A stretch of DNA of 63,724 bases, counting the filler, from Rhizaria sp. SCN 62-66 (Eukaryota): assembly GCA_001724265.1 (NCBI GenBank). It is 3 parts of 3 records of this genome, joined end to end, with 100 filler letters (N's around TTAATTAATTAA, not from the genome) between each part and the next. Parts side by side here need not be neighbours in the genome. Positions count along the whole stretch, not along the records: positions 1 to 22,598 come from MEDY01000437.1; positions 22,699 to 45,291 come from MEDY01000438.1; 1 more part is not named here. One strand, 5' to 3'. Of the stretch, positions 1 through 44,311 are shown one piece after another (within the stretch, counting starts at the first letter, position 1; every line of letters begins with the position of its first letter). Below the pieces are notes generated by a model. That model did not search any database and was not told the origin of the DNA. It saw nothing but the letters and a program-made list of their open reading frames with translations. The position numbers were made by a program, and so were the translations under genes.

Positions 1-2043
1 GCGGTCCGCGGCGACATCGACCGCAACAGGGTGATCCGCGTTCCCGTTCAAGAGCAGAGTGGACTGCGCGGCCTTGAAGAGACCGCTGCCACTGCTGGCC
101 ATCGCCACACGCAGCTGCGGAGACAGCGGGTTGCCGGCGGCCGCGGTGATCGAGTCCCAGCCCACAGTCACCTGCGGTGCGCCGTCTGGCTTGACTGCAA
201 AGGTCAGCTCCGCGCCGTTGAACTTGACGGGACACCACGACCAGAGAAAATCGCTCGAAGCTGAGCCGGAAGAGGCTTCAACCACCTTGTTGTCGTCGCT
301 GGCGCCAGAGACGGTGTATTCAACAGTCGCCTCACAGTCCATGCTTTCGGCGACGTTGCCCGTCGCGCGCACTGGTGTGATATCCAAGTAGCCCGAGGCG
401 GGGAACGCTGCCCCGCCAGACGTGCTGATCGCGACAACGAAAGTTCCGTGTTCAGATTCGTAGCGCACAGTCGCAATGACGCCGGTGGCGGGGGTGCCGC
501 CACTCGACGCGGCCATCACCGAGACCGAGGGGGCGACGCCCGTGAAGAAGCCCTTGTCGGTGTCAGGCGCGATGCGGAAGACGTCCGCGCCAGTGAAGCC
601 GACGGTCTCGGTGAACGACTCCCACTGCACGCGCAGGGTCGCGGAGCCCGCAGTCGCGTGTGCGGGTTCAAACTTCGCGGTGAGTGCGACAGAGCCAAAC
701 TCGTTGCCGCAAGCCTCAGTCGCAGCGGTTCCATTGACACCGCCGTTTGTGCTGCTCAACATCGACAATTTATCAGGGTAGAGTGGAGCAAGGCTATACA
801 GGGTTGTGGTCCCACAAGACAACTAGGAGGCCAAGCGAACTTGGAATGTGAAAGAGTCCGCACCAGCATTGCTGAACACGGCAAGGGTGGTGTTGCTAAA
901 AACAATTGTGTGAACGTGCGACTCGAACAAAATGTTTGCAATCATGCTAGTGTCGGTGTTAAACGTTACCGAGCTCGTAACAACGCTACCAAGGATCTCG
1001 GTATCGTGTGCATTGACGATACTCAACTTGAGAGATGGCAGCGCGGTGCTGATAAAGCTATCCCATGAGACGGTGACAAAAACAACAGACGAGGCTGCGT
1101 TAGTAGTCATGCTGAGCTGCGTGCCGCGCATCTGGGGACACGATCCGAGATTTACGGTGACCTCGATGGGCAAACCTGTGATAGTGCCCGACGCCGCAGA
1201 CAGCGCGTAGACACCACTGGTGCCAGCAGAGGTGCACGGACCGATTATTTCAGAGGGGATGTGAATGGCGCTCGACGCCGGGAGCGACACGCCGGCAGAA
1301 AAAGTAAACGTCAGCGTGATCGTGTCGTATGTCTTAGTCGCCCTTAAAATAACGCCTTCGAAAACAACGAGATCACCAGAGGAAGTTATACGTGAAAAAA
1401 CACGTGCGCCAGTAACAGGCTCAAGCTTCAGCGTAAAACTGTCACTGGTAATGGGTTTCGAGAACTGTGACCACGAGAATGTCACCTCAGGAACGCCAAG
1501 AGCGAGAGAGGAAGTCAGCAAGGGGCTCGTAAAAATCAGTGGGCACATCGTCCAGTAATAGTTGGCGCTAATATGGGAAGGCTGGAGAGTAGAGTACGAT
1601 GATGACTCTAGGTGGAACGGGGTATATGAATTACATGGGATAGAAGTACTCGTGCGTTCTAAAGTAACAGTGATGCTATCGACACCAGAGGGGAAACCAC
1701 AGGAGGGGATCTGAATAGATATCCCACGGTTCACGATGACTGCATTAACGTCACACTACAGCGTTGAAGTGACGGAGGAGACCCCTTCGATCATGTTGGG
1801 CGAGTCAATGGCGCCGTTATACACGATAATGAACTCGTTTTGACTCCCACCATTGGTCTTTGAAGTCCACGCCACAGTGAACTGCGTGGTGCCACTCAGA
1901 CCGTTGTCGGCTGAGTCTTCAGTGAATGTGACCCCGTGGAAAGTAGTCTCTACCGTTATCGCAGACGCAAAAGATAAGAGAAATGTAAGCAGTATCACCG
2001 CTACTAGTGGGCAAGCCCGTCGAAGACCCCAAAGCAAAGTCAT
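1..2043 (-). CDS. Secreted/surface protein with tandem ~135-160 aa beta-rich repeats; 3'-truncated by the window edge; two in-frame TAG codons
   Basis: ATG at 2043 followed by a signal-peptide-like stretch (MTLLWGLRRACPLVAVILLTFLLSFASA). ORFs 1756..2043 and 823..1734 and the stop-free stretch 822..1 are all in one frame, separated only by TAG at 1758-1756 and 825-823 (681 codons to the edge). Recurrent C(P)..F/M...L......V.V.W.S motif. Confidence 0.8.
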
Positions 2044-3009
2044 CTATTATTAGGGGCATCCGCACAAAAGGTAAAAGGGTGGAGGTGATGAGATTGAGCG
2101 ATACTACTACTGTGGTGGAACATTGCTGAGAAATTAGTGAGAACATCTCCACAAAATATCATAGTTCTGTGCGGGTATCCTTTATACTGGACGTAAACAC
2201 ACGTCGTAAAGCTCCCGAATGGCAACGATGGTGCAGTGGTCATCTCGCAATCACGCCTTGCGATAGAATGCGCTCAGAAATGAAGTTGTAAAGGCCGACG
2301 TATAAAAATGAATAACATATGCATGCATTACATTAAAAAGCGCGCCCAGCGTTATCGTCCACAATGCTGTAGTTACACTATCTCTTCTTGAAAAGTTCGA
2401 TGGCGACACGCATTAGACGGTTTGCGATTTTTGCATTTTTTTTAGGTCCCCCCTTTTGAAGAAGTGTGGACCGATAAAATAGTCTGGCTTCAGCAAAGTT
2501 ACGAGCTACTTGTACCAATAAACGTTTAGCTCAATAAGGTATCTTTGTTATTACGTGTTGTCCCCCCCACCCCCCCCAATTATATATTAACTCTATGTAT
2601 TGTATCATATATGTATATATAAATTGCAATTGATGCCGAATCGGCATCAAACCTACTCAAGTTTATCGCCGTAATATCTCGAGCTTGAACGATCTCGGCC
2701 TTGCTTTGCTTAGCATTGCTTGACTTAACGTGATGTCACAGACTCTCTTTTTCTATGAGAACAATCAGAACCAGGTATATAATTCGAATTATATACGGTC
2801 TCTATGATATTATGAGTTGTTGTTGTTGTTTTCGCAGAAAAAAGAAGACTACGTACACAGGAAAACACCACCTTTATATTACGGCGGCCATGGCTGTTGG
2901 GTAGCGATTTTCACAGTGGTTTGCTGTGCGAAGGAGATTTTATGCAGAATGTCGATTGTAACACGTGACTTAGCTAGCTTTGATTTGGTCTGTTGCGCTC
3001 GTGACGCCA

Positions 3010-4767: not shown

Positions 4768-5412
4768 TCTAGTCTAGGATGTATGTTGGATGAGCAAGGC
4801 TCGAGCTGGAAGGGAGTCAAAGTCGACTTTGACTGGGGAGGGAAGTGCTTCTGTCGGTGGGCCTAAAGAGGAAGGTAGGTGGTTTTGAAGACTGCAATAT
4901 AAATGGCAAAATGCATAAGCTCTGATTTTTCATGATCTCAATCAGCTAATCGTTTAACGGAGAATACACGGATATCTAGCACGTCTTCAAACTCGCTATG
5001 AGAAACGCTCACTTCTAAATTCCGATCACGGTCGGAATTCCGACGGCTGGACTCTCTCCCGGTCACAGTCACTTTGGAAGTTAGGTCCCACGGTCAGTCC
5101 GCGGTCTTCGTCCCCACGGAGCGAGACTCGATCGAGGGCCAATCTGCCAGAGTCGCATCTGGGCGCGATTGATCGTCAACATCGATGAAACTATTTCGAC
5201 AACATAGACCTATGATGTTTCTATCGTAGATTATCCTTGTGGTTGCTACGTGCCCTTTCCTGCGCCCTGTGGGTGTCTTCCCGTCATCCCCCCTTTCTCT
5301 CTCACATTCGCCAACCCTCAACTCACTCTCTTTCCCACCACTGCCATCCTTCGCCACACCCTTCCCTTGCCCTCGCCTCTCCCCCACATTTTTCCAACAG
5401 ACATCAGCTTCG

Positions 5413-7081: not shown

Positions 7082-8056
7082 TCAACCCTTACGCTGCTGC
7101 TGCTTGTTGCCCGCCAGCGACACTGCCACAATCCCCAGCCCCGGCGCCGCCGCTGCCGCCGCGCTCGTCTGCTGGACCACCGCCGCCAGCGTCGCCGTCT
7201 CGGCCGCGGCGTCCTTGGCCGCCTTGCACAACTCGACGAGCCGGGTGGCCACCGCTGACTGGGACGCAGCGACGCGGGACAGCTGTGCACGCGTCGGCAG
7301 CGCACTCGGGGCGGTCAAACCGGGCACAACAGAGCCAGCGCTTGCGTCTACACTCGCAGCAACGGCAGCAGTTGACTTTTCACCCCCACGCTTATTGTTG
7401 TTGTTGTTGTTGTTGCGGCCCTTAGTCTTGCCAGTCGCGTTGCCGGTGTCGTCATTCTCGTCGTTATCGGCAGCAGAAACAGCAGCAGTAGCGGTCGTAG
7501 CTGCGCCGGGATATGAGCTGGCCTGGGCAGCGGCGGTGGCAGCAGCGGCGGCGGTGGCCGCGGCAATCGCTTTGTCAGAGTCGGCCTCAAGCGCTGTCGC
7601 AATAGTTGCGGTGACGCCCCTACCAACGCTCGCGCGCAGAGCCGCCACGGCCACCACGCGCGCAGCAAGCCGCTATTCGAGTTTGGCGACACTGGCAACA
7701 AGTGCGGTGTCAAGGGGCTCGGTTGGCAGAGCAGCGGAGAGGGGGAGTTCCCAGTCGACCTTGGAGAGAGTCTTGGACATTAGGGAGTCCATCCAACACT
7801 CGAGGTGGGCCTTCAGAGACGCGCGCTCAATGCTGGAGAGGCGTTGCGCGCTCGGCTATAGCATATCAAAAAATAAAATGAAGCAAACATAGTTTGGGTG
7901 AGATCGAGGTGATCAAGTGGAGGAAAGTAGGGAGAGACAAGAGGGAACTTGGAGACGAACCACTTTCTTAGCGTCAGCAAGGTATTCCTCGCAACTTTCG
8001 ACAAGCAGAGCGCGGATTGCGTCGTACTGTGCGCTCGAGGCGTCGTAGCTGTTCAT
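7082..8056 (-). CDS. Probable kinetochore Nsl1/Mis14-like coiled-coil protein; one in-frame TAG
   Basis: Exons 8056-7961 and 7855-7082 (phase-0 intron GTTCGT..TAG). Segment EPLDTALVASVAKLE[TAG 7675-7673]RLAARVVAVAALRASVG resembles the Mis14/Nsl1 EPxDxxLxxxVxxL...VAxLR signature. Stop TGA. Confidence 0.55.
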
Positions 8057-15478: not shown

Positions 15479-18400
15479 ATGGCGCAACCTGCGCGTAAGT
15501 ACGTACAAATACTACAAATCTACCTATAGATGTCTCAATACCCCTGATCTCGTTTGTGCTCAGTCTTAGCGGGGTGCGACTGACACAGCTTACTGCTCCC
15601 ACGCACTTCTCCTCCGAGTCACCACCTTTCTCACTTTCACACCACCAAACGAACACCAATCTCAACCAAACTAAACCAACACTTATAATACTACATGTTG
15701 ACCCGATATCATATTAACTCACTTTGTGTTGCGACTACAGTGTGTCTCGCGAGATCGCCGCCAAAGTGCGCGCTGGCTGGGCCCTCAGCGCCGTGCCATG
15801 CCCCATCTGCAACACTCTCCTCGTCCGCGAAAAGCCGTCGAACAAGCACTACTGCTGCCAGTGCCAAGTCTGGGCCGTAACCGAGGCTGAGGCGGCAACG
15901 ATGCGCCAGGGCCCCGCGCCGGCGTCGCTAGTTGCAGCGAAGCAGCAGAGTGACAATGCGAGTGCTGCTTACAAGCCCTTCAGCTACTCTGCCAACGCCG
16001 GCTCTCTGAGCAACATCAACAGCACGAACGCCGTCATCACTGCGAGTGCGAATACCAGCAGCAGCGGTGTCAGTGCCGCTAGCAAGCGTCCTGTTGCTGC
16101 GGTGGCTGCAGACTGGTCTGACGACGATGACTCTAACAGCAACAACAACACCGTCAACGTTAACACTGCTATTAACAGCAATATCCCTGCGCAACAGACT
16201 GAAGATACCGAGGTTGATCCCACTTCTCGCGCTGCCCGCGCCGCCGCGACCGCGCGCGCCTACGCTCAGCTCAAGTCTCAGGTTCAGAACTCGTACACAG
16301 AGGCTTACACTGAGCCCGAGGCTAACGATAACAAGAGCGACGCTGCCAATAACGCTGAGCTTGCTGAGACTGAGGCGGAGGCCGAGGCCAAGGCCATCGC
16401 TGCTGCTGTGGAGGCCGAGCTCTCCCGCTTCCGCGCCCGCTTAATCGCCACCGCCGCCGCTGGCACAAACGACGACTGCAGCAGCTATAGCGGGACCGAG
16501 AACGGTATTGCCGGCGGCGACTACGACGCGGGCGATGATGGCGACATCGGTGGTGAGTTTGCTGCGCTTGATGCTGCTGAGGATGCTCGTATCGAGGCTG
16601 AGATTGCAGCGGCGCGCGCGGCCGGGGAGCTCTCTGACGAAGACGTTCCGTCTAACGGTTCGTCTAAAGGTACTTACACCGGCTCTAAGGGTGTTGCGAC
16701 AAAGCGCAACGAGGAGGAGGAGGAGAGCGGCGACTTCAACAACAACATCAACAACGGCGACGACAACGACGGTGGCTATGGCAAGTACGATGGCAACGCG
16801 TATGGCAATGATTATGACGGTGACGGTGACTTTGACGATGACGATGCCAACTGGGAAAAGTACTTCGATGACACGTCTTCCCCTGCATACGCACTCCGCA
16901 TGCAGCGGAGTGACGCTGTGTCGGCGCTTACTGCTCAGCTGATGCTGCAACAGTGGTCTATGTCTCAGTACTCCTGCCCCAACGGACTCTTTGCCTGCAC
17001 CGGCCCGCTGATGCAAGCTCGGTACGTAATCACAAAACAAAAGGCTTGGTTGAGGTTATATATTTTAGTCATTTGAGAAAATAGTTTATATTTATTTTTA
17101 AATTTGCCTCTTTTATGTTTTATATCAAATTAACGGTATATGACTCATTTTTGGTCGATATATAATGACTTTCGTTGTTTTTATCGTCTCGCAGGCAAGA
17201 CGGCCTCCGCGCCCCGGCCCCCGCGGCCGCGACTCCGGCTTTACTTACCTACGCCCGCGCCAACCTGACCGAGCGTCTGGCGCGCGAAGTCGCCTCCGGC
17301 ACAATGACCGAGGCGCAAGCCCGCTGCGTCGACGTGTCGAAGCTCACGGTCCCGCCGGAGACTGTGCGCGGCTGGGTGGCGAAGGCGGGGCAGCTATGGT
17401 GCCCGCATTGCGGCTGCGTGTACGAGCTGGACCGCTCTACCGGTGGCAGCTCTGGCGAGGAGCTTGCGATTGTTGCGGGGGCCATTGATATCTCGGCCAG
17501 CAACACCCGGTACAGTGACTCGGACTCTGACTCTGAGACTGACGAGCTTAACAACAACCACGGCAACGGCCAGGACAACAACGACGACAAGAGTACTCGT
17601 GACTCTAGCAACACGGGCGTGAGTGCCGCAAGTTCTTTCACGGGCACGGGTACTGGAACACATGGTGCCGGTGCGTTGCCTCCTTTGCAGCAGAAGACCG
17701 AGGCCGAGCTCGATGCCGAAGCCGCGGCCGCTTGCGCCCCCGTTGCTTACCTCAACACGCCCAAGTCATCCTCGTTGATCGGCCAGTGTCTGGCACTGGG
17801 GTGGTCGATGCCTGAGCAGCCGTGCTTGCAGTGCGACACACCGTTAGTCTGCCCGCCCCCTTCCGACGACTATAACAATGATGATATTGAGAGCGATGGA
17901 TCTAAGCAGGTCAAGGCTGAGTGTGTAGCGTGCGGCGCTACTTACCCCGTCGACCCCCTGACACGCGAGGTGGTACTTACATCTGCCAGCACCGAGACGA
18001 AGCCATCAAAGGCCTCCAGCGACTCAACTACTGCATCTGTCTCTGCTGCCTCAGCTCCTGCTGCTGCTGATGCTACTCAGGGAGCGTATGACTTTGGCGG
18101 CGACGACGACGGCGACGAAGAGTGGAGTGACGAAAAGACCCGTGCGTTCCTCGCCTCCCCCGAACTCGCCGTGCGTTCCGCCGAGTCACGTGTCCGCTCC
18201 GAGCGGCTCGCTGCCGCGCTGGCACAAGGTCTCCGCATGACGTCGATTTCGTGTTGCGACTGCTATACGCCGTTGGTGGAGGATCCGGAGACGGGGAAGC
18301 AGAAGTGCGTTGGCTGCGGTGCCCGGTTCATGAGTGAAGCAGAGTACGAAGCCCTCCAAAGTCAAAGCCAGAGCCACGAGATCAACGTCAACGTCAACGG

Positions 18401-20656: not shown

Positions 20657-20701
<45 letters not shown>

Positions 20702-22598: not shown

Positions 22599-22698
22599 NN
22601 NNNNNNNNNNNNNNNNNNNNNNNNNNNNNNNNNNNNNNNNNNTTAATTAATTAANNNNNNNNNNNNNNNNNNNNNNNNNNNNNNNNNNNNNNNNNNNN
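22599..22698. other. Artificial contig-joining spacer
   Basis: 44 N + TTAATTAATTAA (stops in all frames) + 44 N. Confidence 0.97.
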
Positions 22699-23409: not shown

Positions 23410-26400
23410 TCACACGTTGCCGAGCGCGCCGCCGTAGCTCCCGCCGTAGCCGGCGGCGTCGATGCTGGGGTTGGCGGCTGTGCCGACCATGGCCAGGTGC
23501 AAGTAGCGCAGCACGACGTCGTCACCCCAGCGCGCCATCCGCACCAGCGGCGCCGCGGCACCCGCCAGCCGCACCGCGGGCTCGCGCGCCTTGGCCTCGG
23601 CTAGCTTCGCGCGCAACGCGGCCGGGTCGTCGCTGTCGCTGTCACCGTCGGAGTCCTCCTCCAGCGCGGTGAAGCTGCTCCGGTTAGCCATCGAGCTGCC
23701 CCGGGACCGGCTGCCGCCCGCCGCGCCACCCGCGCCGCCGCCGCGGAGGCTCGCGCTCGTCCCCGGGGCGCTACTGCGGGCGCCACTCGGCACGCCGCCC
23801 GTGGCAAAGGCTGGCGCCGTGGCTGCGTTGTAGCAGCGCGCGCCGCGGTCGCGTCTGGCGTCGTCGTCGCAGTCGTCGTCGTCGCTGCAGCCCTCGCCAC
23901 CGCAGCCGTCGTCGTTGCCGTCCAGGTCCAGGTCCTCGTACCCGTGGAGGTTGCCGCTCTCAGTCGCACGCGCGGTCGCACCGGCGCCGCCCGCGCTGCC
24001 ACCGTTGGCGAGCGCGACCGCGGCGCGGTAGCGGGCGCAGAGCGTCCGGAAGCCGCGGTACCATTTGCGCCAGGCGCGGCGCTGCTGCTCGTGCGAGCGG
24101 GCAAGCGCGGCGAGCGTGGCCAGGGCCTTGCCAAACACGGCCGCGTGCGAGAGGTCGTGAAACAGCAGCGAGGAGATGGCGGGTATGATGCTCGTCGCGG
24201 GCACCGTCGGCAGCGGCACGGCCTCCGCGGCCGGCGCAGCTACCGGGCTCGCCCTGAGAGTGGTGGTGGCGGCGTCTCTCATGCCGCTGTGCACTGGGCT
24301 TGCGTGTTCGGTCGGGCTCAGCGGGGTGGTGAACGTCGTGTTGCCGCCCTGCACGCGCATCTCGATGTCGCTGCTGTGCGCCGCCTTGTTGCTGCTGCTG
24401 CTGAGATTGACAGCAGAGGCAGTGGCAGCGTCAGCAGCAACGGTGCTCATGTTGCTGTTGTTGTTATTGTTATTGCTGATGTTACCGTTGAGGTCGATCT
24501 GGCTCTGCCGGCGGCTGCTGTGCGCGCTCGTCCTGACGGCATTCTCAGTCTCGCCCAGCAGGAAGCGCATGATGCGCGTCTTGAGCCCGACAAAGAGGTA
24601 CACAACGACGTCTTTGTTGCGGTTGAGCAGGCGCTTCATCATGGTCAGCGACGTGATGTCGACGCTGTTGATGCCGTGCGCGTTTATCACCGTGACCAGC
24701 CGCAGCCCCGCGGGCAGCGCGCTGCGCCAGCGCACGGCCGCGCGCTGCGCAGTCAGCGAGTCGGGCGGGAAGATGTGCTCGGGGCGCAGCGCGAGCGCCG
24801 ACGGGGACCGGAACAGGAACGGAGCGCTGCCGCCGCCGCCGCCGCTGCTGCTGCTATCGAGAGTCGAGCCGCTGGGGATGTGCAGAGAGAGCGCGCCGTT
24901 GGCAGCGTTGGCGTTGCTCTTGTTGCTGTTGTTGTTGATGATGCGCAGCGAGCTGCTGGGGGTGCGGCCGAGCGGCAGCGTGCCATGCTGTTGTTGGTCC
25001 TCGCTCGTCTCGTCGTCGCCGTGGGCGTCACCGCGGGGGCCGCCGTGGACCGCAACAGCGCCGGCGTCCTCTGCGGTACCAGCATTACCAGCGGAAGGAT
25101 TGGGGGCCGCAGAAGTCTTGCCAGCAGCGGCGTTAGCGATCTTCCTGCTGCTGTCGACAGCGTTCTTCTTGTTGCGCTTCGCATTCGCCTTGGTGTTGGG
25201 CTGGTTGCTCGCAGCATAATACGGGTGGGACCCGTACGTGCGGCTATTGTGCGCAGCAACGGCGGCCGCGGCCGCGGCGGCCGCGGCGAAGGCGGTGTCG
25301 AGCGTGGCCATCAGCTCCTGCTTGCACTTGAGGGCGACGTTATTTACGCTCACAACAGATAGACTTCCGGAGTTGTCGCTGTTGCTGTTGTTGAGGGCGC
25401 TGCGCTTGGGGTTGTGTGCGGTGTGAGCCGCTGTCGTGTTGTGCGCGGCAGCAATAGCGTCCTCGGCGGCTTCGAGCGATCTCAACAGAGCGAGCTTTCT
25501 ATCGACGAGACCAGTCAGCTTGGCGTAGAAAAAGTCCTGGTTCGCGAAGTGAAGCCTACAAAAGTGCAAGAAGAAAACATGGAATACAAGTGCGAGTGCT
25601 ATCAACGTTTTCATAAAATGAAAAGAAAAGACAAAATAGACTCAAATAAATCTCAAATATGTCTAACTACTACAGTTTCATTCAAGAATAAGCACTGCGA
25701 AGATTAGATAACGTACCGTGCGTCGAAGCGGAAGACGAGGAGGCTGGGGTCGTCGCGCGCCTCTGGATACTTCTCGACGGACTTGAACTGTTCGGTGCCG
25801 GGGAGGCGGCCCAGGACGCGCGTGCCGGGGCGCGCGGTGTGGAAGAGCAGGACGATGATGGAGATGGCAAAGGCGGCGATGACGCCCCACTGCGAGTCGA
25901 CAGCTAGCGTGACGAGGAAGGGGACAAGGTACGACACGGACTCGATCGGGGACACAAACCAGAGGTGGTAGGAGTAGGGCAGCTCCATGAGCATGCCGCG
26001 GAAGCTGGAAATGACGACGGAGGACAGGATGGCCTTGGGCAGGTGGAACAACAGCGGACCAGCGACCATGACGCAGAGCAGCACGACCGTGGCCAGGAAG
26101 AGGTTCCAGAGGATCGTCGCGGGCTTGAGCTGGTTGGTGACGGCGGAGCGTGAGAGCGACACGCACGGCATGTAAGCCGAGAACATCGACCCGACCATGG
26201 CGGACACCCCCAGCGCACGCATCTCCTGGTCGGGACTGATGGTGTAGCCGTTCTGCGCCGCGATCTGCTGCGAAGTCGCCACCGAGACGATGTCCACCAC
26301 GAGCGCAAGGATTAACGCGCCGCCGATCTGAGAGGCGAAAGAGCCCAACTTGGGAAACTGCGGCGTGGGAAAGCCGTCCTTGATCTTGCCGACAATGCCG

Positions 26401-28092: not shown

Positions 28093-28117
28093 ACGCCTCG
28101 TCTCGTCAGTCCAGTCC
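28093..28117. promoter_or_regulatory. Candidate promoter motifs in the divergent SulP/GYF intergenic region
   Basis: ACGCCTCGTCTCGTC (28093-28107) also occurs at 11219-11233, and GTCAGTCCAGTCC (28105-28117) also occurs at 34353-34365. All copies lie in head-to-head intergenic regions. Confidence 0.4.
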
Positions 28118-28446
28118 GGTCAATTTTTGACGAACCGCCTTTGATGGCGCTGCTGGCCACAACAGCACTGCAACAGTCAGCAAGCGAACACATAAAGATG
28201 CCGTGAATAAAGGGGTCGCAGCGATCGTGAGACGCTGTCAAAGTCACGTGCGACCTCGTATCGGTCGAGTTCTACACTTAATCAATTTTGTAAATTAAAC
28301 ATATTCTTCCAAGGACATTCTATCTAGTCCACGCGACTGCACCTACTATCCGCTTCGCCCAGCCTGCCGCCCTGGCTCACCTTCCCACTCTCTCTCGATC
28401 CCTCGACCACACACTCACTGCTGCGCTCTGCCTGCTGCTGCACAGA

Positions 28447-30759
28447 ATGTCCCAGCCCAGCGACGCCTCGCGCGGGGGCAAGTACGTTCCCCCGCGCGCC
28501 CGCGACGTCACCGACGACGGATTCACCCTCGTCGCAAACACCCGCCGCAACGCTCCCCGTAACAACAGTAGCAATCCTAGCGACAGCAGCAGCAACGCGA
28601 CTGCCTCTGCCTCTGCCGGTGGCGCCCCTAGTGGTAGTCGCTTCACGCGTCCCACCTCCGGCGCCGCCACCCGCCGCCCCAACAACAGCAACAGCAGCGG
28701 TAGCAGCAGCTCTCACAACGCCGCTGCGAGTGGCGCCAACGCCCACGCAAGCTCCGCCGCCGCCTCCGGCAGCACTAGCGGCGCTGCCGCGGTGATCGCG
28801 CTGACCGCGGCGGCGTCCCCGTCGCTTGGCGCAGCGTCCCCGCCCTACGCGGCGTCGGATGTGCGCTCGCTGGTGCACTACGAGTCCGCCACCGCCACCT
28901 CCCCGCCCATCGGCGCCACGCTCGCGCCTTACGCCATGGGCGAGGTCAACCCGACGAAGCCGATGTACACGCGCGCGCAGATGCTCGGCATCTACACTAG
29001 CATTGCCTCGAGCGTGCCCGCCGCCGTCGCACCCGTCGCGGCCGACTCGGCCGACAGCAACGCCAACGCCAACGCCAACGCCGCCACGATGCTGATCGCG
29101 AGCGCCGACAGCGCGCGCATCCCACTGCTGTCGACGTACGCGCCCGAGAGCCTGGCCGCGCTGCCCGACGTCGTCTCTGCGCTGGCGCTGCCGCCCGCGC
29201 TGCTCCTCCCCGAGCCCGCGCAGTCGCGGCTCCGCGGCGCGCAGCGCTCGACCGCGGGCGCGCACGGCGCTCACGGTCACCTGCCGACGGGCAAGTCGCC
29301 CGCAGTGCGCCCCCGCGGCGCCTCGGCTGCGCCCTCACCGTGGCTCGCCGCCGCCACCCCCGCCGCGCAGAGCAACCAGAACGCAACCGCCCACAGTCAG
29401 GCTCACAACAACGGTCAGCAGCAGGCGGTGGCGAGTGGGTTCGGTGCCTCTCTGTCGCACCTCGCTCCCTCTCAACAACAGCTCAAGCAGCAGCAGCAGC
29501 AGCGGCAGGTCGACTCTCTCTCCGCTTTCTCGCTCGATAACAGCAGCAGCGCCGGCCTGGCCGGGCTCCCTGCGGCCGCCAGCGGCGCCATGTTCCCGCA
29601 GCTGGGCGCCCCCGAGCTCACGATGGGCTTCTCGGCCATGTCCATCGGCTCGGCCGCCGGCTCTACGCCGGGTTCGGTCACTCACGGTCTCAACCTCGAC
29701 CTCGGCCAGTCTCCGCAGCAGCCGCTGCAGTCGCTCCAGTCGCTCCAGAGCATGGCGGGGCACGGCATGGGGATCTTCCCCATGGGTGCGGGCCTGCTCA
29801 GCAGCGGCGGCGTGCCCGGCAGCGCCGAGACGCTTTATGCGGCGGCTTTCCACCCGGCGACGCCCCCCGCCGAGGCGCTGGCGCTTCTCTTCGGTCCCGC
29901 CGCCAGCCCGCTGTCGCCCCCCGCCGCGCAGTTCATCCTCACCTCGGCCCGCATCCTGCGCCACGGCCGCGAGCTCTACGCGCGCACCATGCTCGCCTCG
30001 CGCGGCGCGCCCGCGGTCGAGGCGCTGGGCACGGTGCTGCAGACGCTTGCCACCATGCTCACGCGGCTCCCGCGCCCGCGCTTCGGGCCCAGCGCCGTCA
30101 TGGCCGCCATCACCTACGCCGCGACCGTGCAGCAGCACGAGCTTGCGGGGCTCGTCCCGCCCACCGCGGCCTTCCCGCCCGAGGCGCTTGCGGCCGCCGC
30201 GGAGGCTGGCTGGCGCTACCGCGACCCCGTTGGGGCCATCCAGGTGCGTTCTCTTTCCTCTCATCAACCCAACACTTCTTTAAGTTCTTTTGAGGGCAAA
30301 GATAACTTTATTATTCGTATTTGACAATTTGATGTGGTGCTATGTTGAATTCCTAAATTAAATTCTGCTGCTTCACTTCAATTTACGTTCATTATATGGC
30401 GATATACTCATCACATCTTGTCCCCTTGCTTTACTCTTTGCTTTGCTCAGGGCCCGTTCCCGTCGGCGTCGATGGCCGAGTGGTGGGAGCAGCGCTACTT
30501 TCCGCACGACCTGCCCCTGCAGCTGGACGACAACGACCTGATCCCACTGGACGTGTGGTTCATCCACGGCCTGCCCGCCTTCCTGCCCGAGGTGCCCCCG
30601 GCGTTCCTGCCCTACGCCGCCGTTACGGCTGAGGTCGCGGCCTTCATGGCCGAGCTCAACCAGCAGATCCACCGCGCCACGGTCATGCAGATGCAGCAGC
30701 AACAGCAGCAGATGTTCAACATGAACAGTCTGGTCATGCAGCAGCAGCAGCCTCAGCCC

Positions 30760-30792
<33 letters not shown>

Positions 30793-31325: not shown

Positions 31326-31369
<44 letters not shown>

Positions 31370-34184: not shown

Positions 34185-35315
34185 CTAAGCTCTCAACAAA
34201 ATAATAAAAACAAATGTTCGGGTTGTAAATGGGAAATGAGTCACATAATCACTGACGGATGTTTGGAGTCCAGAATTCGATTGCCAAGTGAGGCTCGACA
34301 AACAGTCGGCCGCCCATCATCACGTTGCTTCAGTCGCCACGGTTCGCAAAAAGTCAGTCCAGTCCAAGGTCCAATATAAGTCAAATTAAATGCATACATC
34401 ACGTATACATTCTTATTATTACAATATGACATAAATGAATGCTAGTGTGCACATAGTTATCTTATCTCACTTTATTTTATTGTAAAAATGGTTTATTTAT
34501 TCCGGTATATCGATGGTTAGACTAGACCGCAGTCTGTCACAATGATACACTTGAATAATGACAATACAGGAAGAACAAAGCATAAATCGGCAAATAGTCG
34601 AAACACATAGCGAAAAACGTAACATCTTTACGGGTGAGCAGTAAAAATGAAACTAAGGCGGGATTCACTCTTGCGAAGGTTGACTGTGAGCAAAGACCTC
34701 CACAACAAAGCGAGTCTGGCCTTGGCACGCATTTCCAATTACTGATGCATCACTTGAACGCATCGTCAAACTCATTTAAAACACAGTATGTATAATTATT
34801 TTGATTTGAAGTACTGCGTATTTTAACGACATTTGATGATGCTGCAAGGATCCGCAAAATATAACTCAACTTCAAGTCGTCGCCGTGCTATGTTGTTGCT
34901 GCTCAGCGCATGTCGTTTCGAGTCGTTTTAACTGCGCAATAAGCCCACTTCTAAGGATCAGCACACTTGAAATTAGAACACCCAACATATGTATCAAATG
35001 TAACTTTGTGATCCATCTTTAGTCTCAACGTTTTCGCTCACATTCGCTCCTTTCATTCTCTACTCCCCCCCTCCACAACAACAAACTGTCGCTCGTTTTA
35101 TCGTTGTGCTAATCCTTTGTATTCCATCGTGTGCTGTCCAGTTTTCCCCTAAAGTACTCGCTGTTGCGGAAATTACCCCTGGGATTGCGTTATAATCCTA
35201 TCGCTTAACAGCTGTGCGCCGACGCCAAAAGTACATCAGTGCAAGCCACACTTGATCACACCGCCCTTGCCGAAGCGCGCCTCAGACCGCCTTTTGCGTC
35301 TGCCCCTCCGCCGCA

Positions 35316-38300
35316 ATGCAAGCCCTCGGCTACCAAATCGCGCCGCCGTCGTGGACGATGACGCGATTCCAGGGCTTCCTGGGCTCCTTCGCGCTTGCCT
35401 CCGCCGCCGCGGGCGTCGGCGCCGCGGGCGGGACGGCCGGCATGACCAGCGACGAGGCCGCGGCCGCGCTGGCCAACAACGAGAACACCTCGCACCCGAC
35501 GATGACGCTGCTGGTCCCGTCTCTGCTGGCGGCGCTGGGGTGCATTGCGTTTCTGCCGCTGGGCGTTGTGGCCGGCTTCAACACCGCGGACACGTGCTCT
35601 GTTGTCGACAATATTGCGCTCTTTTCCTGCACCGCATTCGCAACCGTTCAGATGGGTGTCTTGCTCATCCCAACCTTTTTCTGCGCCGTGTCGGCGCTGT
35701 GCGTGTACAAAGCCGTAGAGCCCTTTTGGGCCCTGTACAGCTTCTACAACAAGCGCATCAAAGCCGGCAACGCCTTTGCGCAGCCCAGCAGCTCGAGAAG
35801 CGGCTCTGTTGCGAGTAGCCAGCAGCAACGCCCGTGGGCCTCTGAGCCCCTGTTGCCTCACTCATCGGCTGCGTCTGCGGCGGCCTCTGCGGCCGTCCCC
35901 GCCGCGTCCGCTGCTGCTGGCTCTGGCGTAAATAACAACAGCAGCAGCGTTAACAGCAGCGCTAGATACGGATCGTCGTCAGACGCTAGCTCTAGCGAGT
36001 CAAGCAGCAGTGGTAGCAGCAGCAGCAGTAGCAGCAGCAGCATCAACAGCAACAGCAGCACTACCGCTGCCGGCGGCGGCAGCACCAACCAGTCGTTCCT
36101 GGGCGCGCGCTTTGCCGCCTGGCGCCGCTCCCGCACCGAAGCCCGTCTCGCCGCTGCCGCGGCCGCTGAGAGTGCAAGCGCGGTTGCGGACGCAACGGGC
36201 GGGGGCCGGCTGACCGCCGCTGTTGGTGCGCCGGTGGCCTCGGCGGTGACCGTGCGCACTGCGCCTGAAGACGTGGGCATTGAGACCGGGGAAGTACGCA
36301 CGCGGCCCTATTGCAGCAATTACCGCTTCGTCTTTGTGGTCATAATGGCGACGGTAACGCTGATGGTGCTGGCTGTGACGATCATGGTCGAGATCACGCA
36401 AATTGCGCTCTCGCAGGGCCCCAGCAGCAACTGCAACTGCATTGTACGTTATATCCTCTGCTGAATATCAAACTACTCAATCAAATTCATAATAATACCA
36501 ATATTTTGTAATAGGCATTTTAACGTGCCAGTATTTTTTTCAAACTCCTTAAAACACTCAAACGCTTCGCTTACAACTCCAACAAAATGTTTGTATTGTC
36601 GTATCTCCAGCCCATGCCCCTTTACGTCGTAATCAACGCGCTCATCCTGCTCTCGTGTCTCTACTGTGAGTACATTGTGCTCTCGGGCGCCTTCTGCGCC
36701 GTGGGCAACGCATGCACGAGCGCGCTGTCGATCGAGCCCGTGCTCGTGCGCGCGCACCTGCGCGTGCTGCTGCAGCGCCGCGTGCGCCAGGCCATGCTGC
36801 AAGTCAGCAGCGCGCTCACCGCAAACCCCACGTCCTTCAGCAACGACGCCAACGCAGGGCTCGCGCGGTCTGGATCATCAGCACTGCCTGAGGGTAACAA
36901 CAGCAGCAGCAGCAACGTCGGCGTGAGCAGCAGCAACAGGGACAGGAGTGCGCTTCAAAGCCCTGCTGCTGGTGCCGGGGCCAGTGGCGCGGGCAACAAT
37001 GCTAGCTCCAGCTCTCTTCAGCAGCAGCAGCAACAAGAACAGCAGGAACAATAGCTTGAGCCGCAGCCGCAGCTGACGCCGGCAGAGGCCGCCTCCGCCG
37101 CAGCGCAAGACACAATCAGGGAGATCATGCTGCGCAACTGCGAGATCGACATGGCGGGCAACAAACTCTTCATCTTCGACCAGCGCTGGGCGCGCGCGCC
37201 CGTCATCCCCGTCGCCATGATTATCGACAAGGATGGCAACGCCGCGCCCGTGCCGGGGAACAACATCCCTGCATCTAGCGCCGCCGCTGCTGCGAACCCT
37301 GGCGCGGGCGCAAGTGCTGGCGGTGCAAACGCGAATGCAAGTGCGCAGAGAGAAAACCCTCCTGCGCCTGCGCCTGCGCCTGCGCCCGTGCCCGAGTCCT
37401 CCGAGCAGCACCAGCGGCAGCAGCAGCACGCCCATGCCAGTAGCAGCAGCAGCAGCAGTAATAGCACGCCGCTATCGCCGACATCTCAGGACGCTCTGCT
37501 GCCGCTACAACAACAGCCTGTTAGTGCTGGTGCCAGCGCAGGTGCAAGTGCAAGTGCAAGTCATCAGCAGACGAGTTCGGCCTCCGTATCCCCGCTTGCT
37601 CACGGTCACTCGGCGCACGGCCACTTCGGCGCTGCGAGTCGCCGCGCGAGCAGCGGACATGAGGGCCAGGCTGGACTGGAGATGACTCCGCGCGGCGGCT
37701 CTGCTGCCCACGCTCACTCTACCGCTCACGGTCACTTCAGTCCCCAGCCACTCGCTGGCAGTCCCGCCGCTCCAGGCTCATGGTCTGGTCTAAACAACAC
37801 TCGTGATCACACTGCTGCTGCTACCCGTGTCGGCGCTGGCGCAGGTCCTGGCGCTGGCGTGCCGATGACCGACGGCGACGACATCGGCAGCGCGGGCAGC
37901 AGCCCTCTGGACGCGTTGCGCGACATCGCCGTATCCCCGTCCTCACAGCTCCCCGGCGGCGAGCCGAGCCCCGTCGACGGCAGCAACACCAACGGCAACG
38001 CAGGCAACATTGGCGAGAGCGCGATGGCGAGTGCAAGTGCAGGTGCGAGTACAGAACCTGAGCGCACGCTGATTTCGCTCCGCCGCCGTCCGTCGGCCAC
38101 GACCGCTACAAACGGTCTTGCGAGCGCACTCAGTGAAGGTGTAACCACGCGATCAAAGTCTGCGGCCGCCGCGGCTGCGGCTGCAGCGGTTGCTGGCAAC
38201 CATCGCAGCGACAACAGCGAAGATGAGAGCAAACGCAGTTTTGACGCGGAAGGAAACAGCAGCCACGCAAGCAATGCCAATGCAACCACGGCAGCTGACG

Positions 38301-39927
38301 TCACTCCTGTTCCTGCCGCCGCCGCACCCGCCGCTGCCGCACCCGCCGCTGCCGCGCCCGCCGCTGCCGCGCCAGCCGCACCCGCCGCCCCTGCCCCTGC
38401 CGCAGGCGGTCCCACGGCAAACCTGCCGATGGCGGCGCCATTCCGGCTGCAGCAGCGCATCGCGACCTACAAGTGGTACTACATCCACCTTACTCCGATG
38501 CCCGTCGAAGGCGCCATTGCGCCCGCCAACGTCGCGGGCGCCGCGGGCGCCGGCGGCATGCGTCCGCAGACAATGCTGTCTTTCTACCGCGTCAAGCGCT
38601 ACAAGCCCGTCGTCGCGCCGACCCCGGCCAACACCAGCGGCGGCGGCAGCGGGAGTAGGGCGGGCAGGCTGGCGGTGTTGCCGGGGTCGAATGGCGTTGC
38701 GACCACGCCCAGCGCCTCCGCAGTTGCCGTCGCCGGCGCCAGCGCAAGCGTCAGCGGCGCCGGTGTGAGCAGCAGCGCTCTAGCGACTGGTGGCGGCGTG
38801 CGGCGGGACCGTGAGGGCACGTGCTTCGACCGCGCCGCGCACTCGCAGCTTAGCTCGGGCATAGTGCCCGCCGTTGCGCAGTCACCCAGTAACACTACCG
38901 CAGGCGCAGGCGCGGGCACGGGTGACACGGCGGAGAGCCACGGTCACGGTCACGGGCAGGGGCAGGGGCAAGCGGCCGAGGAAGAGGAAGACATGTGCGT
39001 GATCTGCTGTCTCGCACTGTGGCCGGACCAGTATCGCGGCTTTCAGAAGCAGTGGGTTGAGGTCAGCAACAAGCCCAAGCGCCCGCGCACGCACGCCCAC
39101 AGCCACGCGGGCGCATCGGCCCACGGTCACCTGGCCGCCCACGGTCACTCGGGGACGGCGGCTGCAGACCGGGAAGTCACACTGGGGACGCCAAGTCACG
39201 GCCACAGCGGGCAGAGCAGCAGTCGGCCGCCGCTGTCTGCGGTCTCCGTCGCAGCCGCCAATCACAACAACAGCGGCGGCAGCAGCAGCAGTGCGGGTGC
39301 GCTTAGCACGGCAGACTCGTACAACAGCGCGACGTTTGGGCCGGGCCCGCGCGCGTCGGCCGTAACCATTGCGGCGCCGCTGCCCGTGTCCTTCGGCGAG
39401 GTCGTCAGCGTCTGCGCCGCCGCGGGACACGCGCGCATGCACGCGCACTGCGCAGACGACTGGCTCTGGCACCAGGCCGTCTCACAGGTACGTGAATAAC
39501 AATTAAAACTACGTTCTATGAGTTTTCTATGCTATTAAAATATCGTCGTAACTGTGTTGATGCAAGTTATGTGAAATTTAAACTGTGTTACAACTACTTC
39601 TCACCCGCGTCCACTCCTGTCTGTTATCTTTGCTTTGCGCACGCTCACACAGGGCCACCCCAAGTGCCCCGTCTGTCGGTTGTCGTTGCCGCTGATGGTG
39701 GACCTGGTTAAGCAGGTTCAGGGTGCGATGGACGCCATCGACCTTGCGCGCTCGGTCCACGACAGCCACCTCGCTCTCCTCCGCAGCGGCGGCGTCGCCG
39801 GCTACGGCAGCCCCAGCCCTGGTGTGGGCGCGGGCGCGGGCGCGGGCGCGGGCTTGAGTGTGGGAGCGGCGGCGGCGCCCGCACTGCCCGTGCTGCCGCC
39901 GCCCCGAGTCAACGGACAGCAGCAACA

Positions 39928-39958
<31 letters not shown>

Positions 39959-40024
39959 GACCAGGGACAAGAGCAGGGAGAGGCAGAGCGCGCAGAAGAC
40001 GAGCGCAACCGCGATCGTCGGTGA
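35316..40024 (+). CDS. Multi-pass membrane protein with C-terminal RING-H2-like domain (probable E3 ligase); one in-frame TAG
   Basis: Exons 35316-36443, 36611-39487, 39653-40024. N-terminal TM segments. CVIC...CAAAGHARMHAHCADDWL..|GHPKCPVCR. TAG at 37052-37054 inside exon 2, in frame with ORF 37127..39499. Stop TGA. Confidence 0.75.
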
Positions 40025-40835
40025 TAGGCGACTGCGGCTGAGCGCGGGTCGTGGCGATGAGTGCGGACTCGTGACAGGTGACAAGTGACTGCAATCATGT
40101 GTACCTGGAGATGAGGTCGATTTCCAAGAGGTCTAACAAAGAAATGGTATTATCATTGCGTGATTTTGTAATGAACCTCTTAGGAAATATCCATTTTGAA
40201 CAAATTTGAACAAGAAAAGTAAGTTCTGTGATTGCAGCTCGCATTGCAAGCACCGCTGTGGTAGTGTTGCTAGCCGCGACAATAGCTGTGTAAACATGAA
40301 ATAGTGAAAGAATACTGTTTTTGATTTTAAAATAGTGATTCCAAGCCATGCTGAGCAATGACAAGGCATTTTCTAGCACTAACTCTGTACAAACTCTCAA
40401 TATGGTCTGGATTGTGACGCGTAATACAAGAAAGATTTGAGTTTGCAATGACTGTAACTCAGGCGAAAAATGACGATTTTTTACAGCATAGTAAACATTT
40501 TATAGTGTTAATCTGAGGTGCATAATAACTTAAAATGCGTTTTGACCAAAAACGTTTTTTTAGAGCGCATAGCCTTTGTAAAGTGCCCAGGTATCATTGC
40601 GAATGTGAGTTTGAACGCGATTTGTGGCTCAGACCCGTTGCCCGTTCACGCGCCTCCAATATCAAGGCTCTCGTCAAACTTCAAGAGTGTCAGGGGAGGT
40701 GCTTGAACGTAATTATCCAATGGTGGTATAATTTCATGTTGTAAAATTTCCTCATATTAGTACTTTTCAAATTATGTTTCTTGCGTAGACTGTCTTTCCA
40801 CTTCGCAGTTCTGATTAGCAAACCGCTTTCTGGCA

Positions 40836-41577
40836 ATGTCCTCAGGGTCATCCAGCGCATACTTGCGCTCGGATCCTAGCTCAGGTACGTCTCATTTCCT
40901 TCTGAAATTAGCGCCTTGTGATGTGCCATCTCTATTTTATTGTTGGCTTACTGTCTTGTACCTGTTAACTCTGCCTTTTCCATCCTCCCCACGATAGCGC
41001 GCAACCGCAGCAAGGGCGATAGGCACAACAAGAAAGACAAGAAAGACAAGAAACACAGCCACAGCTCCCACAGTAATGAGAGGCCCATGTGCCGCGACGA
41101 TGACAACCGCGACAAAGACCGCGTCAAGTCCGACAAGAAGCACAAGAAAGACAAGAAGGATAAGAAGGACAAAAGGGACAAAAAGAGCACCGCGGCCGCG
41201 CCCGCCGCCGCGCCCGTGCCCGGCAGCTTCGTCATGGGTCCAAACGGCGAGCACCCGCTGGGCCTGTACGGTCTGGCCGCGCTGACGGAGCTGCTCGCGC
41301 GCACGGCGCCGCGGCACCCGTGGCAGGAGGCGCACATGCGCGCCAACCCACACCCGGCGTGCCGCGGTCCCACGCCCGTGCCCTGGCTCGAGCGCCAACA
41401 CGTCGACGTGCAGCGCTTCTTTGTGCTGCACGACCGCCTGGCTGAGGCCTACCGCAAGGAGAGCGGCATCGAGCGCCGCGACGCTGTCCGTGAGGGCGAA
41501 GGCGACGGCGAGAGCAATGGCGGGAACCAGAACAGCCATGGAGCTGGGCGCGCGGGCAACAGCAACAGCAACAGCAT

Positions 41578-41617
<40 letters not shown>

Positions 41618-44311
41618 AGCAGGAGCAGGAGTCGCAATAATGGCGAGTTTAGCAACGGCGTGAGCAGTCCAAGCAACAACGTTAACAATGACGACGACGA
41701 TGGTGACAGTGAGACCGAGAATATCAGCAAGCACAAAAACACCAATCGCAATCATCTCAGAAAACGCGGCACGACCATCAACAACAGTCCCAAGAGCTCC
41801 CTAAACCAGAGGCCGCAGCAGCAGCGGCGGGACAATGACGACGATGACGACGGCGACGATGAAGAAGAGAATGAGGAAGAGGAGGAGGAAGATGTGCGGA
41901 GTTACCGCAAGACGCGGTCTGGCACCCAGGCCGAGCGCGAGCTCAACCAGCGCGTTACGCGCAGCCTCCGCGCCGGCGCGGGGTCAGGCACGAGCGCGCC
42001 GAGGGGGAGCGGCAGCAGCATTGGGCCGGTCAGCAAGCGCATGCGGTAGGCAAGGCAGCCCCCTTATGTCTTGAGCAACACTAACTACCACGACGACGGC
42101 AATGGCTACGACGACTGTGACGACGGCGAGGAACCCGACGGCGGCGACGACATGTGCGAGAACAGCACCCGCGCCGGCTCTGCGCCGGCGTCAACAGGTG
42201 CGCTCGCAGCAGCGATGGCGGCTGCGGCCGCTGCCTAGGCTGAAACTATTGCGAACCTAGAGGACGAGCTGCGGAACCTTGATCTCGGCCTTGATACAGC
42301 TCTCGCGGCCGTAGTTGCAGCCTCGGAGGAGCCTACTTCTCTTCCCACTGCCGCCGCGGACGCCGGACCTGACGCAGACGCAGACCCAGGTGCGGACACA
42401 GATGCAGAGCACGCCTCGAGGCTCTTGAGCGCCCTCGCCCGCAGTGACGGCCTCGCGGCGCGCGCCGCGGCGGGGCGGGCTCCCGCGCGCGCGATCGCGC
42501 GGCAGCAGCAGGACGCTGCGCTGGCCGCGCTGCTGGCCGAGATCACCGCGGAAGAGATTACGATGACAGGCGAAATTGCGACAGGCGAGGGCGCGACGGG
42601 CGGCGAGCGTGCGCGGTCGACGGCGCGCGCGGCGGCGGACGCGGCTGCGGAGCAGTACGCCGCCGCGACGGCCGCGCTGGCGCAGGTCGAGGCCGCGCAC
42701 CGGGCCCGGTATCACCTCGACGCGCCCGAAGGCAAGAGCGACTGCGACGGCGAGCGTGATACCGACGGCGAGGGATCTGGTTCCACTCTAGGCTCCGACT
42801 CCCAGTCCGGCTTTGATGCGGACAACTGCGACGCGATCGCGGCGGCGCAGGCGCTCAAGGAACTCCGCACTACTTCAGCCGCCGCCGCCGCCACCGCCGC
42901 CACCGCATCGAGCCTCGAGGCCCGTCTGCCCCGGCCCAGTCCCAGCCCCGGTGAGAGCCAGGATAGCCGCGCCCGGGGCGGCGCCACCGCTTCTGCCCAC
43001 GGTCGCAGCCGAGGCCGTGGCGGCAGTGCCAGTGCTATCGACGTCGGTCGCGGCCGCGGTTGGCGCCGGAGCCTCGGCGCCTCATCGGGCGCCAGTGCGC
43101 GCGCGTCGTCTGAGCAGTTCATCGGTCTGTCCACCAGTACTGGTCTGCCGCGGACCAAGGCGTCCATCACCTCCGCCGCTGTTGCCGCGCCCAACGACCC
43201 CGGCGACGTGTATGTCGTCAGCGATGGAGACAGCTACTGCGACAGCGATGGTGAGGAGCAGGCGGGGCGCAGGGCTGGCCGCACGCCTGCCAGAAGTGGC
43301 CACTCAATGCGCAGCAGCGCGACCGCCAGCCGCGACCGCGACCGCGCGCTGCCACCGCCATTGCCAGCGCCGGCGCCACCAGCGTCATGCCACAGCCACT
43401 GCCAGCGCGGGGACGGCTCGGCAGACTCAGACGTGCATCCGGGCTCTGTGTTGGCGCAGGCGCTGGAGCGGCAGCGGCGCGAGCGGCAGCAGAACGCGCT
43501 GGCGAGCCTGCTGCAGAAGCAGCTGCGGCAGCAGGCCGCGCAGCAGCGCGCGCTCATGTACGGCATGATGCCCGCGGGGGGCGCTGCGGCGTACGGCGGG
43601 GGCGGCAGAGGCTGGCGACGCGGCAGAGGGGGCGCGCTGAGCAGCGCCCGCGGCTCCGGCAGCAGCAGCGCGGGCGGCCGCGGCAGCGATGCGGAACTGG
43701 GCCTGATGTCCGATATGGCGGCCGAGGCAGCCGGGGCAGCGACCGCAGCCGCTGTCTCCGCCAGCTTCGGGCTCGGCTTCGGCCTTCCTTCGGGTAACGG
43801 GCAGAGTCTTTCGGCCTCATCGCCTACCTTGCATGCGAACTCGTTGTTTTCAGCCTCTCCGTCAGCGTCGGCATCCACGCCTGCAGTTACTGCGCCTTTA
43901 GCGACCGTGCCGTTACCAGTGGCGGCGTTGCCAGTGGCTGGGTCTGGGCGGGACTCGGCGCCGTCAGCGACAATTTCCTTTGAGAAAGTCAATGGACTTA
44001 AGCTTATCGAGCAAATGCAGGTGCCGTCTTCGCAGCCCTATCCATCTCAACATCAGCATCACCACCAGCGCTCACAGCTGCTGCCGTTGCAGCCACAGTT
44101 GCTGTCGCTGCAGCCGAAACCGATGCAGTACGCACAGTTCCAACCGCAGTCACGCGCGCAGGCACAGATCCAAACGCTGGCGCTGTTGTCGCCGCAGTTC
44201 GTGTCACCGCAACGACACAATCAAACGCAGCAATTGCACCAACTGCAGCATCAACGGCAGCGGCAGCTGCAGCAGCCCCAGCAACAGCAATCGACACACC
44301 AGCAACAGTAA
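40836..44311 (+). CDS. Low-complexity, probably nuclear protein of unknown function; two in-frame TAG codons
   Basis: Exons 40836-40884 and 40998-44311 (phase-1 GTACGT..TAG intron). KKDK repeats, acidic tracts and a Q-rich end. ORFs 40940..42049 and 42425..44311 share a frame interrupted only by TAG at 42047 and 42236. Stop TAA. Confidence 0.7.

Follow-up and report, generated by a model that had tools for sequence, protein, structure and literature searches.

Here we describe a 63,724-nucleotide (nt) stretch of DNA, referred to as the window, from Rhizaria sp. SCN 62-66 (GCA_001724265.1), in which four protein-coding genes carry six in-frame TAG triplets. The window consists of three joined contigs (positions 1-22598, 22699-45291 and 45392-63724) and has a GC content of ~59%. 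The joints at 22599-22698 and 45292-45391 are N/TTAATTAATTAA spacers with stops in all frames, a concatenation artefact with no biology. The original prediction, made from the same DNA, held that UAG is a sense codon, probably for glutamine (Gln), and that UAA and UGA remain stops. All position checks passed, placing the six TAGs at the predicted coordinates and strands; they fall in four genes, and contig 3 has none of them (see the table below). We consider it likely that UAG specifies an amino acid in this organism and that its genes end at UAA, for the most part, or UGA, and it is then probably a new case of a known, rare type of code in which UAG alone is sense.

UAA and UAG nearly always switch meaning together, and each new UAG-only case tests ideas on how eRF1 and transfer RNA (tRNA) uncouple the two codons. 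The cases in which UAG alone has become sense are few, comprising Iotanema, one rhizarian, Scotinosphaera and some ciliates (as surveyed in PMC11687900). Unusual features of the present case would be a GC-rich genome, very low UAG usage, and recurrence in wastewater and bioreactor samples. Since the genome is GC-rich, codon capture by AT pressure cannot account for the loss of TAG, while the recurrence, which extends to a poly(A) metatranscriptome, makes RNA and metaproteome tests feasible. There is also a practical consequence for annotation: standard-code gene callers split these genes, and database open reading frames (ORFs) start or stop at the TAGs.

Features of the window discussed in the text (exon coordinates are given in the direction of transcription)
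Feature	Position	Strand	Description
TAG	1756..1758	-	P0001 codon 96 from ATG, hypervariable N-terminal unit
TAG	823..825	-	P0001 codon 407 from ATG, within repeat unit C
TAG	7673..7675	-	Exon 2 of Mis14-like gene
TAG	37052..37054	+	P0002; closes Q/E run: QQQQQEQQEQ-TAG-LEPQPQ
TAG	42047..42049	+	P0003; context KRMR-TAG-ARQPP
TAG	42236..42238	+	P0003; context AAAAAA-TAG-AETIANLEDE
P0001, putative secreted tandem-repeat (all-beta type) surface-like protein gene	1..2043	-	From translation, alleles and repeat profile
Mis14/Nsl1-like small coiled-coil protein gene	7082..8056	-	Ends TGA; sub-threshold Pfam match
Mis14-like gene structure	Exon 1 8056-7961; intron 7960-7856; exon 2 7855-7082	-	Intron 105 nt, GTTCGT...TAG; from sequence and orthologue
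P0002, low-complexity protein gene	36587..39499	+	Ends TAA; 5' limit uncertain
P0003, low-complexity protein gene	41087..44311	+	Two in-frame TAGs, ends TAA
ARPC4 gene	Exons 11165-11163, 10892-10783, 10587-10200	-	Reference for introns and TAA end (Pfam)
Myosin, class-IV-type architecture	52904..58237	+	GYF, WW, SH3-like, motor, IQ, MyTH4, C-terminal WW (Pfam)

Genes that carry in-frame TAG codons

The Mis14-like gene is interrupted by TAG 7675-7673. The Pfam Mis14 match lies below the cut-off both for the window protein (expect value, E=0.015) and for its orthologue P0011 (E=0.0021), and the name is used here as a lead, with no claim of family membership. An exhaustive HMMER search found the orthologue, from a related organism, as P0010 and the longer member of its cluster, P0011 (199 amino acids, aa). 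P0011 confirms the splice junction and, starting at this exon 1/2 boundary, is collinear with the window gene all the way to the C-terminus. A gapless high-scoring segment pair (HSP; 61% identity over 54 aa, E=3e-16) runs through the TAG, which stands opposite alanine (Ala). The 196 codons following the TAG hold no ATG, so the downstream part is not a separate gene. In another assembly, the 39-aa ORF P0009 stops exactly at this TAG.

The start codon of P0001 is the ATG at 2043-2041, and the gene continues beyond the edge of the contig. The protein is rich in serine (Ser) and threonine, is composed of at least five diverged tandem units, and contains two in-frame TAGs. A second form with 82% identity is present in the protein database (P0005/P0012, 405 aa), and both forms occur as DNA in the metagenome collection, where the independent contig L001 is identical to the window and keeps both TAGs, and L002 corresponds to the second form. 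The first TAG (1758-1756) aligns with TCG (Ser) in L002 and P0005/P0012. Six indels separate P0001 from L002 (12, 6, 3, 6, 3 and 3 nt), all of them multiples of three, with three on each side of this TAG. Codons 97-170 are hypervariable (2 synonymous versus 28 non-synonymous differences), which suggests that P0001 may be a surface protein under diversifying selection. The family as a whole (window, L002, P0005, P0012-P0014) comprises at least four mosaic haplotypes that are nearly identical outside the hypervariable N-terminal segment, a pattern suggestive of either diversifying selection or gene conversion in what may be an antigen-like gene family.

L002 also has TAG at the position of the second P0001 TAG (825-823), where all five database forms (cluster members) terminate. 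Past this codon, window and L002 both remain open over 70 aligned codons without a new stop; these contain six synonymous and six non-synonymous differences, the first two codons being synonymous (P ~0.05-0.12 versus neutrality). A profile built from the units upstream of the TAG matches two more units downstream in the same frame (E=5e-5), while the other five frames give E values of at least 0.29 and none of 500 shuffles reaches the real repeat score (12.0 bits versus 10.2 for the best shuffle). The repeats are seen only by profile and in one HSP (E=1e-4), and blastp of P0001 against itself detects no internal repeat. An AlphaFold2 model of P0001, based on a three-row alignment, is unusable (mean predicted local distance difference test score 32.4). 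An ESM Atlas search with P0011 and P0012 gave no match reaching 0.9 (template modelling score, TM, at most 0.51); the structures listed include tandem beta-sandwich surface proteins, which serve as leads only.

The remaining three TAGs lie in P0002 and P0003, which encode low-complexity proteins with no match in Pfam. P0002 has a hydrophobic segment at its N-terminus and a Cys/His-rich tail at its C-terminus, which to our eye looks RING-like. Its sole database match, P0006, is a same-species ORF downstream of TAG 37052. The neighbouring long ORF at 35256-36464 (+) reaches a GTACGT donor ~140 nt before P0002, and the two may belong to one gene, with this ORF as an exon upstream.

Both genes are represented in public sequencing runs. 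A DNA contig from another run covers 36092-37353 with 0 differences and spans TAG 37052; a second covers 41641-43328, also with 0 differences, and spans TAGs 42047 and 42236. A contig from a ~1% diverged strain (41840-42236, three differences) retains TAG 42047. Poly(A)-RNA contigs lie on P0002 at 37160-37353 and 38404-39142, with depth 0 after 39471, and RNA contigs lie on P0003 at 41762-42026 and 42988-44124, with depth 0 after 44287. Poly(A)-RNA contigs lie 0.1-2.1 kb downstream of the TAGs, and the cover ends near the TAAs at 39499 and 44311. The diverged strain is present over 35000-45291 in activated-sludge runs from 2025 that belong to a different study, whose poly(A) RNA also covers P0002 and P0003; the organism thus recurs over years and studies.

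Coding frame, introns and gene ends

This DNA is GC-rich, and open sequence on both sides of a stop triplet is frequent whichever of the three stops is considered; a test of the reading frame itself is therefore required. A plain log-odds codon score (coding versus other frames) was undiscriminating: at a threshold of 10 it kept one of the six TAG sites and flagged two antisense shadow frames. It was replaced by a six-way frame classifier trained on 13 other ORFs (9,608 codons). With this classifier, the posterior of the gene's own frame is >=0.999 on both 60-codon flanks at five of the six sites (for example 0.999 upstream and 1.0 downstream of TAG 37052, and 1.0 on both flanks of TAG 42236). 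The sixth, TAG 42047, has a posterior of 0.84 on its upstream flank and of 1.0 on its downstream flank.

An unbiased scan took in all stop triplets flanked on each side by 60 open codons, a pass requiring that both flanks are assigned to the true frame with a posterior >0.9. Passes were obtained for 5 of 46 TAG, 1 of 66 TGA and 0 of 24 TAA triplets, that is, 5/46 for TAG versus 1/90 for TAA and TGA together (Fisher one-sided p=0.017). The single passing TGA lies where the translation of the ORF, which is in a different frame, reads as junk, and a TAA that passes at a 40-codon setting also sits in a junk-like ORF translation. The coding signal begins right after the TAGs, well ahead of the next ATG, which lies 69 codons on at TAG 1758-1756, 108 at TAG 42236 and >196 at TAG 7675-7673. 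The prediction that the reconstructed genes lack in-frame TAA and TGA also holds, with no frameshift and none of either codon in the 2,983 codons of the four TAG-bearing genes; both codons are likewise absent from the 9,608 codons of the 13 reference ORFs.

Introns in the window are 105-270 nt long, with GTACGT or GTTCGT donors. Those of the ARPC4 gene (Pfam E=4e-63, matched up to position 166/167; ARPC4 chains in PDB, E=1.6e-44) provide a reference; its two introns have GTACGT donors and TAG or CAG acceptors. Two further in-frame TAGs, at 10895-10893 (-) and 7858-7856 (-), which join ORFs into one, are 3' splice acceptors (...ATAG).

One rival explanation treats the six TAGs as artefacts of assembly or sequencing, or as triplets lost from the message by RNA editing or by the splicing of small introns that end in ...TAG. 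Three real introns of the window do end in TAG or CAG, the two further triplets are acceptors, and among the matches listed no RNA contig bridges a TAG. Against this, donor-like motifs (GTNCGT, GTAAGT and similar) are few and lie 288-564 nt upstream of the TAGs, within sequence that carries the coding signal, and the alignments run through TAG 7675-7673 (gapless) and TAG 1758-1756, so nothing is spliced out at these two sites. GT..AG joints at the TAG sites are likewise absent from the matches listed among RNA and DNA contigs of public runs. Introns were accordingly rejected as an explanation of the six TAGs, in agreement with the original prediction. The triplets are also reproducible, since DNA in other assemblies carries TAG, not CAG, at 37052, 42047 and 42236 and at both P0001 sites; two of the runs confirming the P0002 and P0003 sites resemble one data set deposited twice. 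We regard an artefact or removal from the message as very improbable.

With regard to termination, 23 ORF ends were inspected, of which at least seven run into introns, two are in doubtful genes and 14 are plausible. The plausible ends comprise 11 TAA, 3 TGA and no TAG, with only about five of them independently supported. The earlier count of 18 visible ends (13 TAA, 5 TGA) is not reproduced. Use of TAA as terminator is confirmed at the end of the ARPC4 model, and RNA cover also runs out at TAA ends; use of TGA is confirmed by the end of the orthologue P0011. In this small sample, UAA and UGA still terminate and are not found in frame.

Competing explanations and the meaning of UAG

The evidence differs between sites: homologues with a sense codon are aligned at two of the six TAGs, same-frame repeat homology applies to one, and the other three depend on frame statistics. 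Several observations weigh against translation of UAG. The evidence base is six sites in one window, and stop triplets with at least 100 open codons on each side comprise 21 TGA, 12 TAG and 6 TAA. The 13 reference ORFs lack TAG, yet they were picked as uninterrupted. The absence of TAG from 14 gene ends has a probability of 0.02-0.10 if the TAG share is 15-25%, and taking the first TAG of each of the four genes as its end would bring TAG to 4 of 18 ends, which is an ordinary share. ARAGORN and Rfam found no tRNA genes in the window, which also carries no eRF1 gene. No poly(A)-RNA contig among the matches listed bridges any TAG, which is however uninformative either way. The strain differences in P0002 and P0003 (8 synonymous, 12 non-synonymous) are too weak to indicate selection.

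Further points of this kind are those that would favour the standard code, under which the TAGs would be nonsense alleles or decaying genes, or true ends before unrelated open frames in GC-rich low-complexity DNA. Long open frames beside all three stops are common here. Random nonsense mutation in these genes would give TAG in ~60% of cases (59-65%), so that six out of six being TAG has P=0.04-0.07. TAG 1758-1756 is polymorphic: the sample that holds it also contains a TCG allele, and the TAG allele, taken alone, could be a null allele. No homologues were found across the TAGs of P0002 and P0003, for which the word index was saturated by low complexity. On the other hand, an orthologue and an allele continue through two of the TAGs, the downstream frames bear the true-frame codon signature from their first codon without ATGs, and TAG 825-823 and its following frame are retained in the diverged copy L002. 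The absence of frameshifts, TAA and TGA in the 2,983 codons, with indels in-frame only, also speaks against decay. Four broken genes among some two dozen (our estimate), in a population seen across samples and in RNA, would be extraordinary.

On balance a standard code appears quite improbable, and what defeats it is homology and frame continuity, not counts. The two counting arguments of the original prediction, that all six interruptions are TAG and that no gene ends in TAG, carry less weight than was stated. Its core, that UAG is translated and UAA and UGA are stops, is supported by the homologues across TAGs, the repeat frame, the coding signal that precedes the ATGs, and the DNA confirmation.

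UAG usage in these genes is very low. TAG makes up 6 of ~12,600 codons examined (0.05%), versus 455 CAG. All six occur in genes with a GC content at third codon positions (GC3) of 0.64-0.78, and 8 of the 13 reference ORFs, which hold no TAG, are more biased (GC3 0.82-0.94). This rarity, together with the confinement to less codon-biased, fast-evolving genes, suggests that the codon is young or that its decoding is inefficient.

The same pattern could be produced if UAG were ambiguous, a leaky or context-dependent stop which near-cognate tRNA or a low-level suppressor decodes in some genes and which terminates elsewhere, which is the main rival to full reassignment. Ambiguous stop/sense codes are reported in other protists (PMC11687900), Condylostoma, karyorelicts and Blastocrithidia being the systems for comparison. 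Such an explanation would accommodate both the scarcity of TAG and its absence from the reference ORFs, most of which are strongly biased, as well as its restriction to fast-evolving or low-complexity genes, where partial truncation may be tolerated; in addition, just 14 gene ends could be judged. It is countered by the absence of TAG from all 14 of those ends and by the need for two read-throughs in each of P0001 and P0003. Moreover, the Mis14-like gene is small, of kinetochore type and probably single-copy; its TAG falls near codon 93, and the orthologue shares the conserved C-terminal two thirds. We therefore view an ambiguous UAG as unlikely, though less so than the explanations dealt with above.

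If UAG is fully sense, it would be read by a tRNA with a CUA anticodon, or by efficient near-cognate decoding, and eRF1 would have lost or weakened its recognition of UAG. The suggestion that the encoded amino acid is Gln, the Iotanema-type meaning that also appears in NCBI table 15, finds no support in any alignment, as the alignable sites, few as they are, meet Ser and Ala (Gln in 0 of 2), and the poly-Q/E context at TAG 37052 is the only hint of Gln or glutamate (Glu). Ser is also found opposite TAG 825-823 in two of three sister repeat units, in a Cys-anchored register of our own. This hint is weak because Ser accounts for as much as 13.5% of P0001. Frequent use of UAG at conserved leucine (Leu) positions, as in the Leu codes of the rhizarian exLh and TARA phyllopharyngeans, was not seen (0 of 2 aligned sites, very few in number). 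Ser, Gln, Glu and lysine are each compatible with the data, and Leu, tyrosine and tryptophan would appear to fit the two aligned sites worse.

A more specific proposal, which we put forward tentatively and at somewhat less than even odds, is an independent, young capture of UAG outside the ciliates, fornicates and green algae, in one of the groups with class IV myosin (Amoebozoa, Apusozoa, Ichthyosporea, Rhizaria or stramenopiles), and possibly with Ser, not Gln, as its meaning. The freed codon would be just re-entering genes, at 0.05% of codons and with TAG/TCG polymorphism at one site. If so, an abundant wastewater protist would offer a natural system in which to follow a spreading codon reassignment.

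The source organism and known UAG-only codes

The window DNA is eukaryotic, as seen from the intron-bearing ARPC4 gene and the other protein families found, which include a 1,777-aa myosin, a sulfate permease, a Sec63-type protein, and WH2 and GYF proteins (Pfam). The stretch occurs in public metagenome runs from bioreactors, wastewater and activated sludge and in one poly(A) metatranscriptome, and the source organism is thus an uncultured, intron-bearing, GC-rich protist of wastewater and bioreactor communities, known from metagenomes. An Rfam scan of the window gave 0 matches, including no ribosomal RNA (rRNA), and hence no rRNA marker for taxonomy. Among the other genes, a zinc-ribbon domain of the Auto_anti-p27 type (Sjogren/scleroderma autoantigen 1) is present in both of two neighbouring ORFs (15718-17076 and 17169-19601, both +), which may be tandem paralogues, or a single gene interrupted by a ~90-nt intron. 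Long ORFs at 23410-25641 (-) and 28294-30324 (+), and the 35256-36464 ORF upstream of P0002, have a strong coding signature (GC3 0.77-0.86) without a Pfam family.

The myosin gene provides an indication of affinity. It is intron-less, has a GC3 of 0.92, contains no TAG and ends in TAA, and its product matches Myosin_head (E=5.5e-234), MyTH4 (E=8.7e-17) and, in two stretches, WW (E=3.4e-16). PDB matches of ARPC4 and of the myosin motor confirm the families and carry no taxonomic signal. Class IV myosins are described as having a myosin head, a MyTH4 tail and an N- or C-terminal WW domain, and are recorded in Acanthamoeba, ichthyosporeans, apusozoans, rhizarians and heterokonts; alveolates are not among the groups listed in that account (PMC3942036). 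The window myosin fits this definition, judged by architecture alone. Its presence would argue against a ciliate, fornicate or green-algal origin, and among the UAG-only lineages a rhizarian affinity is the only one that may apply. A limited search of the literature, confined to main texts, for a wastewater or metagenome-assembled eukaryote with sense UAG, or for stop codons in Rhogostoma, returned nothing specific.

The UAG-only codes on record are those of Iotanema (Gln), the rhizarian exLh (Leu), Scotinosphaera (Ser), phyllopharyngean ciliates (Leu and Gln) and Protocruzia (Gln) (PMC11687900, PMC5304391). The ciliates with sense UAG that were compared resemble the present organism in preferring UAA as stop and in having been found by metagenome or genome mining. 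They differ in having UAG in 78-91% of genes, compared with 4 of roughly 24 here, and the window contigs are multi-gene and GC-rich with long introns.

In the green alga Scotinosphaera, UAG is Ser and UAA is a stop (as cited in PMC11687900). The likeness to the window lies in the reassignment of UAG alone and in the Ser that stands opposite TAG in our one allele comparison, whereas by its gene content the organism studied here would not be a green alga.

In the fornicate Iotanema spirale, too, UAG alone is reassigned, UAA is the dominant stop and UAG is scarce (PMC5304391; also cited in PMC11687900). However, UAG is Gln in Iotanema, while the residues aligned here are Ser and Ala and the GC content is ~59%; spliceosomal introns (105-270 nt) also occur in the window, alongside an Arp2/3 subunit and a class-IV-type myosin. 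This combination does not look fornicate.

The rhizarian exLh (Sainouroidea) is, like the organism as interpreted here, a non-ciliate with UAG alone as sense and UAA and UGA as stops, and its UAG is rarer in highly expressed genes (PMC5304391). The two differ in extent and in meaning, since exLh has 384 in-frame UAGs in 71 genes at conserved Leu (PMC5304391), compared with six in about two dozen genes in the window.

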